DNA from: a phage
Strand: one strand, 5' to 3'
Assembly (NCBI GenBank): GCA_037431425.1
Contig: GCA_037431425.1_4129.1
Length of the DNA stretch: 64,000 nucleotides
The notes below the pieces were generated by a model. The model was given only the letters and a program-made list of their open reading frames with translations, was not told the DNA's origin and made no database searches. The translations under genes were made by a program, and so were the position numbers. This document shows positions 10,287 through 63,611 of this stretch, in pieces (the first letter of the stretch is position 1; every line of letters begins with the position of its first letter).

Positions 10287-10504
10287 TGAGAACAGTACTG
10301 AATGTGCATGGTCACAATACGATAGTTTCCAATGAAGAATATAAACTGTTACAAAAGATAAAAGCACGCGGTACTGTTCCAGTTGAAAAAGTAAATGAAT
10401 ATTATCAGGAACTAGCTAATAAAATGGTATCGCGTGGTGTTCTACATAAAATAGAAAATGATGATGGTACTGAATCATACCAAACTGTTAGGAGTAGTAA
10501 ATGA
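10286..10504 (+). CDS. Small hypothetical protein
   Basis: ATG at 10286 overlaps upstream stop (TAATG); track ORF 10262 uses upstream TTG. Confidence 0.45.
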   Translation: MRTVLNVHGHNTIVSNEEYKLLQKIKARGTVPVEKVNEYYQELANKMVSRGVLHKIENDDGTESYQTVRSSK

Positions 10505-11175
10505 ATTACGAATATGATCAACAATCCGTTAATCAGATGGCAGATTTATTAAGTGGTCTTAATGATATTGAAGCTGGTGAAACACATAATGCAGCAGGTG
10601 TTCCCTATAAAGCAAGTGGTGATATTGGTGCAATGACTGCAATTTTAACTTCATTAAATGAAGCTGGAATGGATTACGGTACTGATCCAGAGAAGATTCA
10701 TCCGAACGTTGTACCATACAATGCACCATTCAATGAACACATGAATGGACAACAATCTACCATTCAGCCATATAGTCAACCATCTAAGCCGAAAACTAAT
10801 TGGAGCTTAGTAGAAGAAAAAGTTCAAGGAACTAAATCTACCAAAGTGTATAGTATCAAGTGTAATCATAGTTCACAGATTATTATGAATAATATTATGA
10901 TGTATGAAGCTGCACTTACATTAGTTAATCTTTTGAATGAAGGGCGAATGTTGACAGATGCAAAACTCCTTGGTATAATTAGTTCTGGATTACAATACAC
11001 AAATGTAATTAGTGAGGCATTAAAAGCTGCTCAAAGGCGACAACGTGTTCTTAATGAATCAAAGTATGACGAAGCAAAAGAATTAGATATAATCATTGCA
11101 GAAAAGAAAGCAGAAGCTTATAAATTGAAAGAGCGTGTACTGAACTTTCTTAAAAATGAAGGGTATATTACCTGA
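10501..11175 (+). CDS. Hypothetical protein
   Basis: 224-aa ORF, ATGA overlap with upstream gene. Confidence 0.5.
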   Translation: MNYEYDQQSVNQMADLLSGLNDIEAGETHNAAGVPYKASGDIGAMTAILTSLNEAGMDYGTDPEKIHPNVVPYNAPFNEHMNGQQSTIQPYSQPSKPKTNWSLVEEKVQGTKSTKVYSIKCNHSSQIIMNNIMMYEAALTLVNLLNEGRMLTDAKLLGIISSGLQYTNVISEALKAAQRRQRVLNESKYDEAKELDIIIAEKKAEAYKLKERVLNFLKNEGYIT

Positions 11176-31923: not shown

Positions 31924-31951
31924 ATCGGGGCATATTGTCCCGATATTTTTT
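31924..31951 (+). terminator. Rho-independent terminator
   Basis: atcggggc / gtcccgat stem (one G-U pair), then T6. Confidence 0.6.
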
Positions 31952-32013
31952 GAGACAAAAATCACATTGGTGATACAATGTTTTGTGACAAAGAGACATG
32001 ATAAGGAATTCAA

Positions 32014-42731: not shown

Positions 42732-43546
42732 GAATTTTAAATATGCTTAAATCTCTTCACGAAACGACGAAATTGGTTCAGGATGAAAAATATCGTCGAA
42801 GTATTACAAAAGATTTAGCATGTCGAATGTATATGCGTAGATTCGAAATTTCTCGAATTGGTAAAAAATGGGATAATATAAATCGTGAAGACATTGACCC
42901 AGATGCTATTTTTAAAGCATACATGGCAAGAAAAGTTTTCATAAATGAAAAAACTTTTTATATAGATAGTGATAGGGTTCTAGAAGATAAATTCACTAAA
43001 GGTTTATGGAATATATGGTGTATTGAAATATTTGGAGAAGTTCTCCCTGAACCACCTGTACCTAAAACGTATAAAGAATTAAAAAATATTTTTGATAATG
43101 AACACATACATTCAAACTTCTCATTATATGACACTGTATCAGAAGCTGTATTTTATGGTGAGTTACATGGTCATAACAAATATTTTGATAGTATGGTTAG
43201 TTTTGATTTGTTTTGTCACTTACCAGGTGTGTCTAGCTGGACCAGTGATCAACACCGAGCTAGTAAGGTTGATAAACGTAAATTCTCTGCTCAAAGATTT
43301 ATGCAAGTTGCAATGAGTATGTATAAACTTGATTATCTTGGTTGTCCAGAACCATATACTCATTTCTGGAAAGAAAAAGCACAAAAATGCTTAAACTATT
43401 GTATAGTTCGTTTGATGGACACATACATTCTTAAGTTTAGGAATGCAACTGTATATGACATGCCAGAACCACCAGAGAATGAAAAGTATCCACCAGTAAA
43501 AACATTTGTATGGTACAGGGATAAAAGTAACAAAAGGATGCACTAA
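42728..43546 (+). CDS. Hypothetical protein
   Basis: 272-aa ORF, ATGA overlap. Confidence 0.5.
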   Translation: MRILNMLKSLHETTKLVQDEKYRRSITKDLACRMYMRRFEISRIGKKWDNINREDIDPDAIFKAYMARKVFINEKTFYIDSDRVLEDKFTKGLWNIWCIEIFGEVLPEPPVPKTYKELKNIFDNEHIHSNFSLYDTVSEAVFYGELHGHNKYFDSMVSFDLFCHLPGVSSWTSDQHRASKVDKRKFSAQRFMQVAMSMYKLDYLGCPEPYTHFWKEKAQKCLNYCIVRLMDTYILKFRNATVYDMPEPPENEKYPPVKTFVWYRDKSNKRMH

Positions 43547-43561
43547 TGTGTATCCTTTTTT
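43535..43561 (+). terminator. Rho-independent terminator overlapping stop codon
   Basis: aggatgcac / gtgtatcct stem (one G-U pair), taat loop containing the TAA stop, then T5. Confidence 0.6.
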
Positions 43562-43572
43562 CGTTTCATGTA

Positions 43573-43601
43573 TTGACATATGGTGTACCAGTATGTATAA
43601 T
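43573..43601 (+). promoter_or_regulatory. Consensus sigma70 promoter (TTGACA-17-TATAAT)
   Basis: TTGACA 43573-43578, 17-nt spacer, TATAAT 43596-43601. Confidence 0.7.
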
Positions 43602-44777: not shown

Positions 44778-44806
44778 TTGACTTGGATATGTGTTGAACG
44801 TATAAT
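44778..44806 (+). promoter_or_regulatory. Consensus sigma70 promoter (TTGACT-17-TATAAT)
   Basis: TTGACT 44778-44783, 17-nt spacer, TATAAT 44801-44806. Confidence 0.7.
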
Positions 44807-44854: not shown

Positions 44855-45991
44855 ATGGCAGAGAAAGAAATCAATCCAAAAAAATCGTCAACAGTTACTA
44901 AAAACACAAAACGTTCTTCCAAAACTGCGGCGAAGGGTCACACAATTGATGCAAGTGATATTTTCAACCAAACAACAAAGTCACTCCCAGTACTAAAAGA
45001 TGTAAAGGGTAATACCATGTCACTAACAGTTCAAAACATCAACACTGTTGGTACAACTGCTGGTGCGGCGGTTGGTCGTTTGGCTGATGAAATTATGTCT
45101 AAGGTTAACGTAACCGATGACAATACCGAGTTTGGTAAATCAATCACTACAATTCTCACATTGACCCGTGCGGTTGATATTGATAGTCTTCAGGAAGATA
45201 AATCAATTGTTGGTCGCATTAAGAAATTCTTTGTTAATGCCCAACAGAAAGTCGGCGATCAATACAAAAATAGTAAAGAACAAATTGATGAAATTATGAA
45301 AACTCTACAAACTGGCATCAATCGTCAACATGGAGAGTGTGAGTGGCTTGATAAAGCATATAATGAAAACAAAGAATATTTGTTCGAATTACGTGATACA
45401 TTAGTTGGTTTAGAAGAAGTAACTAAAGCACAAGATGCAGTACTGGCAGAAATGCAAGCAAACAAAGACGTGGACTCTTTTGCTATTCAAGAGCAAAAGA
45501 TGATTTGTGAAGCACTTTCTAAGCAAGAAGACAAGATTCGCCGACTTATCATGATGTGTGAACTGAGTGGTCCACGATTGATGAGTATGAAAAAAGTAAA
45601 CTTAAACACTGTTTCTAAGTTTGAAGATTTGAAATCAGTAGTAATTCCTGCATGGAAATCGCAATTGGCTGAACAGCTAATCTCTGAGCGTCAACGTAAG
45701 GATAATGAATTGGGAAATCTAATTGACAATGAAACAAATCGTTTATTAGAGACTAACTCTAAGATGGTTGCAGCTAATATGCTGGATGCTGCAAAGGCAA
45801 ACAATCGTGGTATTGTGGATATTAAAACCTTGCGTAATGTACATAAAACAATGATTGACAGCATCGAAGCTGTTATTGAAGAAGAGAAAAAAGGTAAAAT
45901 GGAACGTGAACGTGCGAAACAAGAAATTGCACAACTTTCACACGAACTCGAAGACACACTTCGTGAAATTGCAGAAAAAGCTAACAAGTAA
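44855..45991 (+). CDS. Coiled-coil protein, hypothetical (a TelA-like resemblance is unverified)
   Basis: 378-aa ORF, largely helical/charged; functional assignment not supportable by eye. Confidence 0.5.
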   Translation: MAEKEINPKKSSTVTKNTKRSSKTAAKGHTIDASDIFNQTTKSLPVLKDVKGNTMSLTVQNINTVGTTAGAAVGRLADEIMSKVNVTDDNTEFGKSITTILTLTRAVDIDSLQEDKSIVGRIKKFFVNAQQKVGDQYKNSKEQIDEIMKTLQTGINRQHGECEWLDKAYNENKEYLFELRDTLVGLEEVTKAQDAVLAEMQANKDVDSFAIQEQKMICEALSKQEDKIRRLIMMCELSGPRLMSMKKVNLNTVSKFEDLKSVVIPAWKSQLAEQLISERQRKDNELGNLIDNETNRLLETNSKMVAANMLDAAKANNRGIVDIKTLRNVHKTMIDSIEAVIEEEKKGKMERERAKQEIAQLSHELEDTLREIAEKANK

Positions 45992-45994
45992 TAG

Positions 45995-46023
45995 TTGACA
46001 CATGGGTGCGTTTTCGATATAAT
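45995..46023 (+). promoter_or_regulatory. Consensus sigma70 promoter (TTGACA-17-TATAAT)
   Basis: TTGACA 45995-46000, 17-nt spacer, TATAAT 46018-46023. Confidence 0.7.
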
Positions 46024-46049
46024 ATTATTATTGAAAACGCACTCTTTTT
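46006..46049 (+). terminator. Hairpin terminator interleaved with the promoter
   Basis: gtgcgttttc (46006-46015) / gaaaacgcac (46033-46042) 10-bp stem with 17-nt loop containing the -10, then tcttttt. Confidence 0.5.
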
Positions 46050-46073
46050 AATATACAGATAAGGAACCAATAC

Positions 46074-46763
46074 ATGAAGCGTAGACATATTAGTGTTGAT
46101 ATTGAGTCTCTTGGCACTCCTGAAAATTCAGGATATGATATTATTATTCCAAATTACGCAGCAGTTGTTGTTCCAAATAAACCTGAAAATGATATCAGGA
46201 ATTTTATATATGTTAAGTTGCCATACCAAGCACAAGTTAACGCTGGCCTGAAATCAGATTCAGGTGCAATGGATTTCTGGATGAATACTTGTCAGAAAGA
46301 ATATCCTAATGCATATGCAGAAGTTGCCAGTACTATGACTCTTCGTGCACCAGAATTGTACGGACCTAATGGTAAATCCAAACAAATCTTTACATCTAAT
46401 AGTATTGTCGATTTCTGGAAAGATATCCGTTATGATATCTATGGTAAAGAAGTTGAACATTCAATTTGGGGAAATGGTTGCAATTTCGACTGTAGTATTT
46501 TACAAGCTAATCACTTAAAACTATTGAATGTTGGTGATTTGTGGAAATATGATGCACCAGAAAATGCACGAACATTAAAACGTTTATTGAATGAAGATGC
46601 TCGTGCTGAAATGGATGAGATTGTGTCAGTGCAGTTAGCTAAATTCGTGAAGTATGCAGAACAATGTGGTATTAATGGTTTGGAATTACATCACCCTCTG
46701 TATGATGCAGCACGTGAAGCTATCCAAATCTCCTACTGTCTCAATAAACTTAAACTGGACTAA
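46074..46763 (+). CDS. DEDDh-type 3'-5' exonuclease (T4 DexA-like), putative
   Basis: ISVDIESLG (Exo I D-x-E), GNGCNFDCSIL (Exo II), HHPLYDAAR (Exo III H-x4-D). Confidence 0.6.
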   Translation: MKRRHISVDIESLGTPENSGYDIIIPNYAAVVVPNKPENDIRNFIYVKLPYQAQVNAGLKSDSGAMDFWMNTCQKEYPNAYAEVASTMTLRAPELYGPNGKSKQIFTSNSIVDFWKDIRYDIYGKEVEHSIWGNGCNFDCSILQANHLKLLNVGDLWKYDAPENARTLKRLLNEDARAEMDEIVSVQLAKFVKYAEQCGINGLELHHPLYDAAREAIQISYCLNKLKLD

Positions 46764-48412: not shown

Positions 48413-48421
48413 TCTAAATCT

Positions 48422-48449
48422 GGGAGTACAAAATGTACTCCCATTTTCT
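48422..48449 (+). terminator. Rho-independent terminator
   Basis: gggagtaca / tgtactccc stem, aaa loop, T-rich tail. Confidence 0.65.
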
Positions 48450-60646: not shown

Positions 60647-61176
60647 CTATGCCAGTACGTAACAGTACTTCACGCTTTACGCTTCAACAGAAAGCAGATC
60701 TTTTGAATATGGCAAATAAAGATTCTAATTATTACTATCTAGTACTCGGTGGTTCAGTTGAAAAGATTGACCTACGTGAGTGTGTGAAATAACAAAGGGG
60801 ATAAAATGAGCCTACGTGAATCATGGGAACAATTTAAAGAAGAGATTGGTTATCGTGGTGTTAAGATTGAACAAATCAATCGAACCGAAAGTATCAAAGC
60901 AAGTTCTAATGGTACTACATATGATCGTTATGATGAAAAGTATGGTTTACATTCTAAATCAAAGGATACTGAGTAATGGTGTATATTAATATTTTTACTG
61001 GTATTATGCGTAAGTTTGTTAATGGTATTGGATATGTATCCAATGATAATGGTAGTACATGGGTAAAAAATAATACGCCCGAATCTTTAGTGAAAAATCT
61101 TCCGTATTATAAAGCTTGACCCCTGAAAATGGAGTATGTATAATACTCCTATATTAATTAAATGAGGATATACGAA

Positions 61177-63053: not shown

Positions 63054-63322
63054 TGACGAAAGAAGAAATGAAATCTCGCTTAAGCGAACTGAAGAAAGAA
63101 CGCAAACTAGTCCGTTTGGACTGGGACATTCTTAACAAAAAAGATGAGCAATCATATGCTAATTGGAGTTCTGATAAAGTTCGCAATGAACGTAGTAAAG
63201 AAGACAACAAACAGTTTATGGCACTGTCCAAGCGTTTATCTGCATTAAATAGTGAAATTACAGGTCTACAGAAAGAAATTATTTCGATTTTACGAGATGA
63301 GATTAAATCACTATATGAATAA
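63053..63322 (+). CDS. Coiled-coil hypothetical protein
   Basis: 89-aa ORF. Confidence 0.45.
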   Translation: MTKEEMKSRLSELKKERKLVRLDWDILNKKDEQSYANWSSDKVRNERSKEDNKQFMALSKRLSALNSEITGLQKEIISILRDEIKSLYE

Positions 63323-63611
63323 ACATGAAGTATTAGTATTAGATAATAAATTCTATGTACCAAATAATGATAGTACTGAAACATATTATCTAATTAATAA
63401 AATTATGACTGAAACTAATACTTGTTGTCGTCAAATCCCAGGAAAATATGAGTTCAGTCAGTCTATTGGCTATTATCGTTATAATCCATTGGAATCATTT
63501 ACAATTGACGTGTTGAAAGTTATTGACATTCTTGTACAGAATGGGTATAATGAAAAACATGTAAATAACTCAGAATTACCAGTTTCAAAAATCGTTATTT
63601 CTAATAATTAG
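63315..63611 (+). CDS. Hypothetical protein
   Basis: ATG 63315 just before upstream stop; track ORF 63252 trimmed. Confidence 0.45.
   Translation: MNKHEVLVLDNKFYVPNNDSTETYYLINKIMTETNTCCRQIPGKYEFSQSIGYYRYNPLESFTIDVLKVIDILVQNGYNEKHVNNSELPVSKIVISNN

Follow-up and report, generated by a model that had tools for sequence, protein, structure and literature searches.

Terminator-promoter overlaps are known from bacteria at tufB-secE and at other operon pairs, with a demonstrated effect on expression; at tufB-secE the overlap has been tested genetically, and heavier traffic from upstream lowers secE-nusG expression (PMC6735719). In the E. coli K-12 tufB-secE spacer, a -35-like TTGACG starts 13 nt after the tufB stop codon, matching the 13 nucleotides given in that work (PMC6735719). 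The -10-like hexamer of the TTGACG-18-CATCAT site (93-135 in the spacer sequence) lies inside the tufB hairpin AAAAGGGCATC-attt-GATGCCCTTTT; both hexamers were assigned here from the sequence together with the paper's remark on "13 nucleotides", not from its figure. Single-molecule work in vitro shows that RNA polymerase can stay on the DNA after intrinsic termination, diffuse, and re-initiate nearby (Kang et al. 2020, PMC6978380); a preprint discusses how combined terminator-promoters could exploit this recycling and compact genomes (Bao & Forster 2026 preprint, 10.64898/2026.02.12.705533).

Among phages, RpoD-like TTGACA/TATAAT promoters are reported to be concentrated in the putative early regions of CBB, a related jumbo phage (PMC5259590), and TTGAC/TATAATA motifs are found at the transcription start sites of PA5oct, which relies on the host RNA polymerase (PMC7318152). 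Promoters nested in terminators are not described in the Pseudomonas phage transcript-end maps that we examined, and we found no phage precedent for nesting in ONT-cappable-seq studies. Here, we describe a junction in a 64,000-nucleotide stretch of phage DNA (the window, which denotes that whole stretch throughout) at which, as at tufB-secE, a predicted intrinsic terminator and the next sigma-70 promoter of two co-oriented units share nucleotides.

Results

A consensus promoter at the junction of two co-oriented genes

The window derives from an Asteriusvirus, one of the E. coli jumbo myoviruses of the 121Q/PBECO4/phAPEC6 group, and its nearest relative is ph0011, with 98.5% identity over this region. 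The element takes up most of the 82 nt that separate a TelA-like gene from a co-oriented exoribonuclease-like gene (Table 1). The TelA-like label is also carried by the upstream gene in the ph0011, 121Q and G17 records. The downstream gene (46074-46763) bears inconsistent public names, among them metallopeptidase, peptidase, DNA polymerase III epsilon, exonuclease and DUF5051, and homologues at 25-29% identity are present in several hundred T5-like phages.

Table 1 Features of the junction in the window, and terminators at the equivalent junction of outgroup phages
Feature	Sequence	Position	Strand	Basis or remark
Upstream gene, TelA-like (toxic anion resistance family)		44855-45991	+	ORF; Pfam TelA PF05816, E = 1.3e-38
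-35 hexamer	TTGACA	45995-46000	+	Invariant in the 8 sequence variants compared
5' arm	GGGTGCGTTTTCGATA	46004-46019	+	Minimum-energy fold, hairpin scan; occupies most of the promoter spacer
-10 hexamer	TATAAT	46018-46023	+	17 nt after the -35; invariant in the 8 sequence variants compared
Loop, 9 nt	TAATATTAT	46020-46028	+	Minimum-energy fold
3' arm	TATTGAAAACGCACTC	46029-46044	+	Fold, hairpin scan, pair counts; holds the predicted start site
Predicted transcription start	A	46030	+	From standard sigma-70 geometry; 7 nt after the -10
U-tract and tail	TTTTTAATATA	46045-46055	+	Expected release zone for read-through RNA, ~46049-46053
Ribosome-binding site	AAGGA	46061-46065	+	8 nt before the downstream ATG; invariant in the junction alignment of relatives
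Downstream gene, Rv2179c-like 3'-5' exoribonuclease (DUF5051)		46074-46763	+	ORF; Pfam PF16473, E = 2.2e-8
RCIP0023/RaK2 (RaK2-type Klebsiella phages) terminator	AGGTTCCA-cttc-TGGAACCT			Tail T-run (7-9)
EJP2 terminator	AGTGCCAC-tttat-GTGGCACT			Tail T7
CBB terminator	AGCTCCCA-acac-TTGGGGGCT			Tail T-run
XbC2 terminator	AAGCCCCT-cattgt-AGGGGCTT			Tail T-run

The promoter begins 3 nt past the TelA stop codon (TAA TAG TTGACA) and matches the sigma-70 (RpoD) consensus at 12 of 12 positions with a 17-nt spacer. It was this site, a perfect TTGACA-17-TATAAT at 45995-46023, that the original prediction made from the DNA letters had named, and all coordinates check out. The site stands 44 nt ahead of an ATG that has AAGGA in front of it, and the predicted start, A46030, falls within the 3' arm of the hairpin. 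Perfect TTGACA-17-TATAAT strings are ~80-fold enriched in the window, with 5 observed against 0.06 expected, and each of the five is on the + (coding) strand. When up to one mismatch is admitted, 15 sites are found against 1.9 expected, again all on the + strand, while promoter-like matches at the 9-of-12 level number 69, with 62 expected. Two of the five perfect promoters, at 10951-10979 and 63523-63551, are not intergenic but sit within long open frames (10501-11175 and 63249-63611, respectively), where they could serve as internal promoters for downstream genes. None of the public records examined carries a promoter annotation at the TelA-like/exoribonuclease-like junction; in the G17 record, the depositors annotated a terminator, predicted with ARNold, at exactly this position.

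The -10 element is enclosed by a strand-specific hairpin

A perfect inverted repeat of 10 bp, with arms GTGCGTTTTC (46006-46015) and GAAAACGCAC (46033-46042), overlaps the promoter and is followed by CTCTTTTTAATAT. The repeat had been noted beforehand with just these limits, and it holds; its extent as a structure had been understated, as the RNA stem comprises 16 bp, pairing 46004-46019 with 46029-46044, includes two G.U pairs, and closes on a loop of 9 nt. The -10 hexamer had likewise been placed in the loop. In the minimum-energy fold this applies to its TAAT, whereas the leading TA is paired at the stem top. The stem starts 12 nt past the TelA stop codon, five of its seven basal pairs are G-C or C-G, and its base directly abuts UUUUU.

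The 76-nt segment 45985-46060 folds with -23.2 kcal/mol (z = -6.3), and none of 200 dinucleotide shuffles did as well. In a scan with loops up to 20 nt, the hairpin is the most stable terminator-like one in the window, and the 49-nt stretch that begins at the -35 ranks in the top 0.02% by folding energy among all 49-nt windows. A standard terminator scan, which allows loops of 3-8 nt, misses the hairpin for the sole reason that its loop has 9 nt. Other terminators in the window have loops of mostly 3-6 nt, such that a 16-bp stem with a 9-nt loop is atypical, and the U-run that follows the stem is limited to five residues.

The hairpin is strand-specific. RNA of the - strand would form ~10-11 pairs (-15.6 kcal/mol, z = -2.6) without a U-run; the full 16-bp stem depends on the two G.U pairs, which are present only in + strand RNA. 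A bidirectional terminator was considered and rejected on the grounds that the - strand hairpin is weaker and lacks a U-run, and that there are no - strand genes nearby. A search of the element against Rfam returned no family at the gathering threshold, only generic hairpin look-alikes far below it.

Small palindromes in the spacer were also seen by eye in other perfect promoters (26883, 63523 and 43573). As a general trend in the promoters of this phage, hairpins are not above background (Mann-Whitney p = 0.36), and this candidate was dropped. Only the 45995 site stands out by folding energy, and a further junction at 61116 only by conservation. As promoters in the window do not generally bear hairpins, the overlap is specific to the 45995 site.

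Both signals persist while spacer and stem sequences change

The junction was compared in eight sequence variants: the window, ph0011, UE-S1, Turkey3, vB_Ec-M-J, 121Q/G17/phAPEC6, JNE01/Turkey5, and A4. Both hexamers are perfect in all eight, while the sequence of the spacer between them diverges among relatives. The spacer measures 17 nt in six variants, the exceptions being ph0011 (18 nt) and an unverified CMSTMSU record (15 nt). In ph0011 (~2096-2125), one extra T in the 5' arm lengthens the spacer and leaves a bulged stem. The CMSTMSU record (~2093-2119) also contains many broken or frameshifted genes, and its anomalies are probably sequencing errors.

In all variants of the clade, the hairpin wraps the -10 and a T-run follows the stem either directly or within 3 nt, a spacing also found in the outgroups described below. 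The hairpin itself occurs in three types. The window, 121Q and Turkey3 share a stem of ~16 bp with loops of 6-9 nt (6 nt in 121Q). JNE01 and Turkey5 possess AAGGTGCGTTTCAA and TTGAAACGCACCTT as arms, which form 13-14 bp, with a 14-nt loop in JNE01. In A4, ATGTGCCCATT-GTAT-AATGGGCACAT forms an 11-bp stem with a tetraloop (4 nt) followed by AUUUUAUU; here, the TAT of the -10 occupies the loop and the AAT the 3' arm. Changes between the types preserve pairing: at the base, G-C is replaced by A-U; the next pair above it changes from G.U to A-U, G-C or U-A; a higher pair is exchanged from G-C to C-G; and in JNE01 one U-A pair has been deleted from both arms. BLAST similarity between the window and A4 ends at the -35, yet the promoter and the layout persist in A4. 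Likewise, both features are still kept in JNE01, in which the flanking protein is only 71% identical.

A count of pairs over seven close relatives found 97% of cells paired, as compared to 38-55% when the partners were slid. Within the close clade, 11 of the 16 pairs are invariant and the shuffle control was not significant (61 of 500). These sequences are too similar to one another, and the case for covariation therefore comes from the few diverged genomes (JNE01/Turkey5, A4 and EJP2); clear double changes in the stem are seen in JNE01, A4 and the outgroup phage EJP2.

Outgroup phages carry a terminator without the promoter

In RCIP0023/RaK2, EJP2, CBB and XbC2, a tight canonical terminator lies right after the TelA-like gene (Table 1), and no consensus promoter is present at the post-TelA position in any of them. 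CBB and XbC2, which are Mimasvirus relatives, possess an extra small gene (~1160-1490) between the TelA-like and exoribonuclease-like genes; the terminator is still directly 3' of the TelA-like gene. The stem core of EJP2 (G-C, U-A, G-C, C-G) is common to A4 and the window, which indicates homology for these hairpins at least. An IMG/VR search recovered only four loci with relatives of the downstream gene. Two of these are known phages, matching 121Q and RaK2; the other two, on metagenomic contigs, have neither a terminator nor a consensus promoter upstream of the relative of the downstream gene.

As the outgroups have a plain terminator, the terminator looks ancestral. By parsimony, it is probably the older of the two signals, and the lineage of E. 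coli Asteriusviruses would have acquired the promoter within it. The simplest reading of the hairpin types is that the stem was remodelled after the promoter gain so as to hold the -10.

Related junctions in the same genome

The genome contains other junctions at which stop and start signals adjoin. At 43532-43601, a 12-bp terminator hairpin (43532-43559) is followed after a 13-nt gap by the perfect TTGACA-17-TATAAT at 43573. At 31924-31979, a 9-bp terminator (31924-31944) and, 5 nt further, a promoter-like site matching 10 of 12 positions (31950) precede a gene of 654 codons. Judged by its layout, the 45995 element is the most compact version of what appears to be a stop-restart module used repeatedly in this phage.

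A second -10 wrapped by a hairpin is found at 61116-61149, where TTGACC-17-TATAAT (61116-61144) is combined with a 7-bp stem, GGAGTAT and ATACTCC, around the -10. The stop codon of the upstream gene, TGA (61117-61119), lies within the -35 hexamer. This junction is conserved in 121Q, in which the promoter is perfect, and in JNE01 and A4, which keep a stem around the -10 with changed arm sequences; the Klebsiella phage RCIP0023 has no spacer at the equivalent junction, and the two genes abut. The 61116 hairpin is weak, ranking at the 11th percentile by energy, and its tail contains few U residues, rendering terminator activity doubtful.

Discussion

A stop-and-restart model for the junction

Taken together, the comparisons point to a combined stop-and-restart element between the TelA-like and exoribonuclease-like genes at which both signals work, and we consider this the likely function of the junction. 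All computational tests run agree that the two signals are genuine and maintained by selection. The stop-restart interpretation draws its support from statistics, conservation, compensatory change, strand specificity and the outgroup comparison.

In the model, transcripts from upstream promoters (the perfect site at 43573 and an 11-of-12 site at 44778) would run through the TelA-like gene. The read-through RNA would copy both arms, fold the 16-bp hairpin ahead of UUUUU, and be released as at an intrinsic terminator. Host RNA polymerase recruited to the embedded promoter would instead start at about A46030, inside the 3' arm; this RNA would possess no 5' arm, could not form the hairpin, and would pass the U-run into the exoribonuclease-like gene and its neighbours. 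By this reading, the embedded promoter would drive a unit that opens with the exoribonuclease-like gene, and transcription of that unit would run on to a terminator at 48421-48443, the next strong one downstream of the element in terminator scans. The latter is a 10-bp hairpin, TGGGAGTACA aaa TGTACTCCCA, flagged as terminator-like on both strands, at which the unit probably ends. For the annotation of Asteriusvirus genomes, the model places a transcription-unit boundary between the TelA-like and exoribonuclease-like genes.

The original prediction had anticipated the two outcomes, and RNA folding agrees with both. Read-through RNA, which it had expected to fold into a terminator hairpin, has a computed fold of about -22 to -24 kcal/mol, with terminators at the same position in the outgroups. 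Initiation inside the downstream arm, which it had expected to escape the hairpin, agrees with the location of A46030 in the 3' arm and with the lack of a stable fold in RNA from there: the segment of the variant alignment that begins at the predicted start folds with -1.4 kcal/mol, and RNA 46030-46110 has a centroid near 0 and no stable fold. Transcript 3' ends had been forecast at about 46045 and are rather to be expected at ~46049-46053. The design had been described as one of insulation and re-initiation. The stop-restart layout is supported, and the word insulation is only partly apt, as a polymerase elongating from upstream has to traverse the promoter on its way to the release site.

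The physical overlap has consequences for both signals. A polymerase at the promoter should cover roughly -55 to +20, which takes in the whole terminator. With the terminator covered by a bound polymerase and the promoter crossed by an elongating one, the two activities would compete for the same DNA. Upstream traffic probably modulates the embedded promoter, which would then not be fully insulated, and coupling of the two units appears as likely as clean insulation. We advance more tentatively, and regard as rather improbable, the stronger proposal that the nesting serves, beyond compaction, as a device that couples the two units without a regulator, through recycling or mutual exclusion. In the recycling variant, polymerase released at ~46050 would stay on the DNA and re-initiate at the promoter ~20 bp behind, giving positive coupling. 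In the exclusion variant, upstream traffic and promoter-bound polymerase would oppose each other, and expression of the exoribonuclease unit would fall as that of the TelA-like gene rises. If the coupling-device reading is true, the outgroup comparison would also record the birth of a perfect sigma-70 promoter within an existing terminator hairpin, the stem of which was rebuilt in three different ways to hold the -10.

Alternative readings of the element

At this junction, a terminator suffices for the outgroups, which raises the question of whether the same could hold for the window, with TTGACA/TATAAT a non-functional by-product of AT-rich DNA and the downstream gene reached by read-through. 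AT-rich DNA does yield many weak matches (69 versus 62 expected at the 9-of-12 level), but only 0.06 matches at all 12 of 12 positions are expected per window, and by-products would hardly remain perfect in eight variants, with a 17-nt spacer in six, while spacer and stem diverge, A4 included. The site is, moreover, at a suitable distance from the ribosome-binding site and the ATG, and the downstream genes would otherwise be left behind a strong terminator with no obvious promoter of their own; we judge this reading unlikely. The converse proposal accepts the promoter and takes the hairpin for a stabiliser or processing site, which protects the end of the TelA-like mRNA, for instance from 3' exonucleases, or marks it, for instance as an RNase III site, and does not itself stop polymerase. 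A 16-bp stem with a short U5 run does depart somewhat from the usual form of efficient terminators in this genome. Against this stand the G+C-rich stem base abutting the U-run, which is the defining arrangement of a terminator, the textbook terminators at orthologous outgroup positions, the 11-bp tetraloop hairpin of A4 with its AUUUUAUU tail, and the terminator call by ARNold in G17 (the 121Q-type version). A hairpin of this other kind thus seems quite improbable. The best explanation, in which both signals work, has its own counterweight: a perfect consensus is no proof of activity during infection, and members of the 121Q/PBECO4 group encode their own sigma factor. We found no transcript map of any Asteriusvirus in the literature.

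The repeat could also be read as DNA, as an operator covering the -10 and bound by a dimeric phage or host regulator, with no RNA terminator involved. A palindrome flanking the -10 is the classic operator layout, and the repeat is significantly structured as DNA too. A fixed protein dimer, however, would not be expected to tolerate arm centres at varying distance (loops of 4, 6, 9 and 14 nt), nor arms that change by compensation with no conservation of the arm sequence itself. Occurrences of the arm motif elsewhere in the window (one mismatch allowed) are neither paired nor near strong promoters, the full 16-bp stem depends on two G.U pairs available to + strand RNA alone, all genomes examined have a T-run adjoining the stem or at most 3 nt past it, and an ordinary terminator occupies the equivalent place in the outgroups. 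With neither half-site nor spacing conserved, and the motif not reused at other strong promoters, the operator hypothesis was rejected as very unlikely. A coincidence of promoter-like string and palindrome by chance, without any function, has in its favour only that weak matches are generally common in AT-rich DNA. It is effectively refuted by statistics and conservation: the hairpin has z = -6.3 and lies in the top 0.02% of windows by energy, perfect promoters are ~80-fold enriched and on one strand only, and both features are kept in JNE01, with its 71% identical flanking protein, and in the more diverged A4.

Relevance of the element

If both signals work, as the stop-and-restart model holds, ~55 bp suffice to stop one transcript and to start the next at a perfect promoter. 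The element would then be a useful natural part for compact genetic designs and a clean test system for the mutual influence of a terminator and a promoter on shared DNA, i.e., for occlusion, roadblock and polymerase recycling. Its relatives provide a natural variant series, with stems of 11-16 bp and loops of 4-14 nt, and the series extends to the side-by-side modules in the same genome and to the promoter-less, ancestral-type versions of the outgroups.

Comparison with known systems

The 45995 element belongs to a kind that is already known, the terminator-promoter overlap; it is a clean new phage example and introduces no new principle. Its closest counterpart, tufB-secE, has the same geometry: the -35 precedes the stem, the -10 falls within it, and transcription would start in the 3' arm. 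Both overlaps are conserved across related genomes. The two differ in setting and in execution. The phage element is located in an early-type region, tufB-secE in a supercluster of ribosomal and translation genes; the phage promoter is a perfect consensus, whereas the promoter-like site of tufB-secE matches at 9 of 12 positions in our scan of that spacer; and the phage hairpin, unlike that of tufB-secE, is lengthened to 16 bp and a loop of 9 nt so as to accommodate the -10.

The stop-then-restart logic is common to the nested element and to the tandem terminator-then-promoter modules between phage early genes. In the tandem modules the signals stand side by side, 5-13 nt apart; in the 45995 element they are nested, so that polymerases would compete for the same DNA. 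Polymerase recycling offers a possible positive coupling, opposite in sign to the effect found at tufB-secE. The recycling studies employed separate elements in vitro or T7 class II (non-hairpin) terminators, in contrast to the hairpin of the Asteriusvirus junction, which is nested with its promoter.
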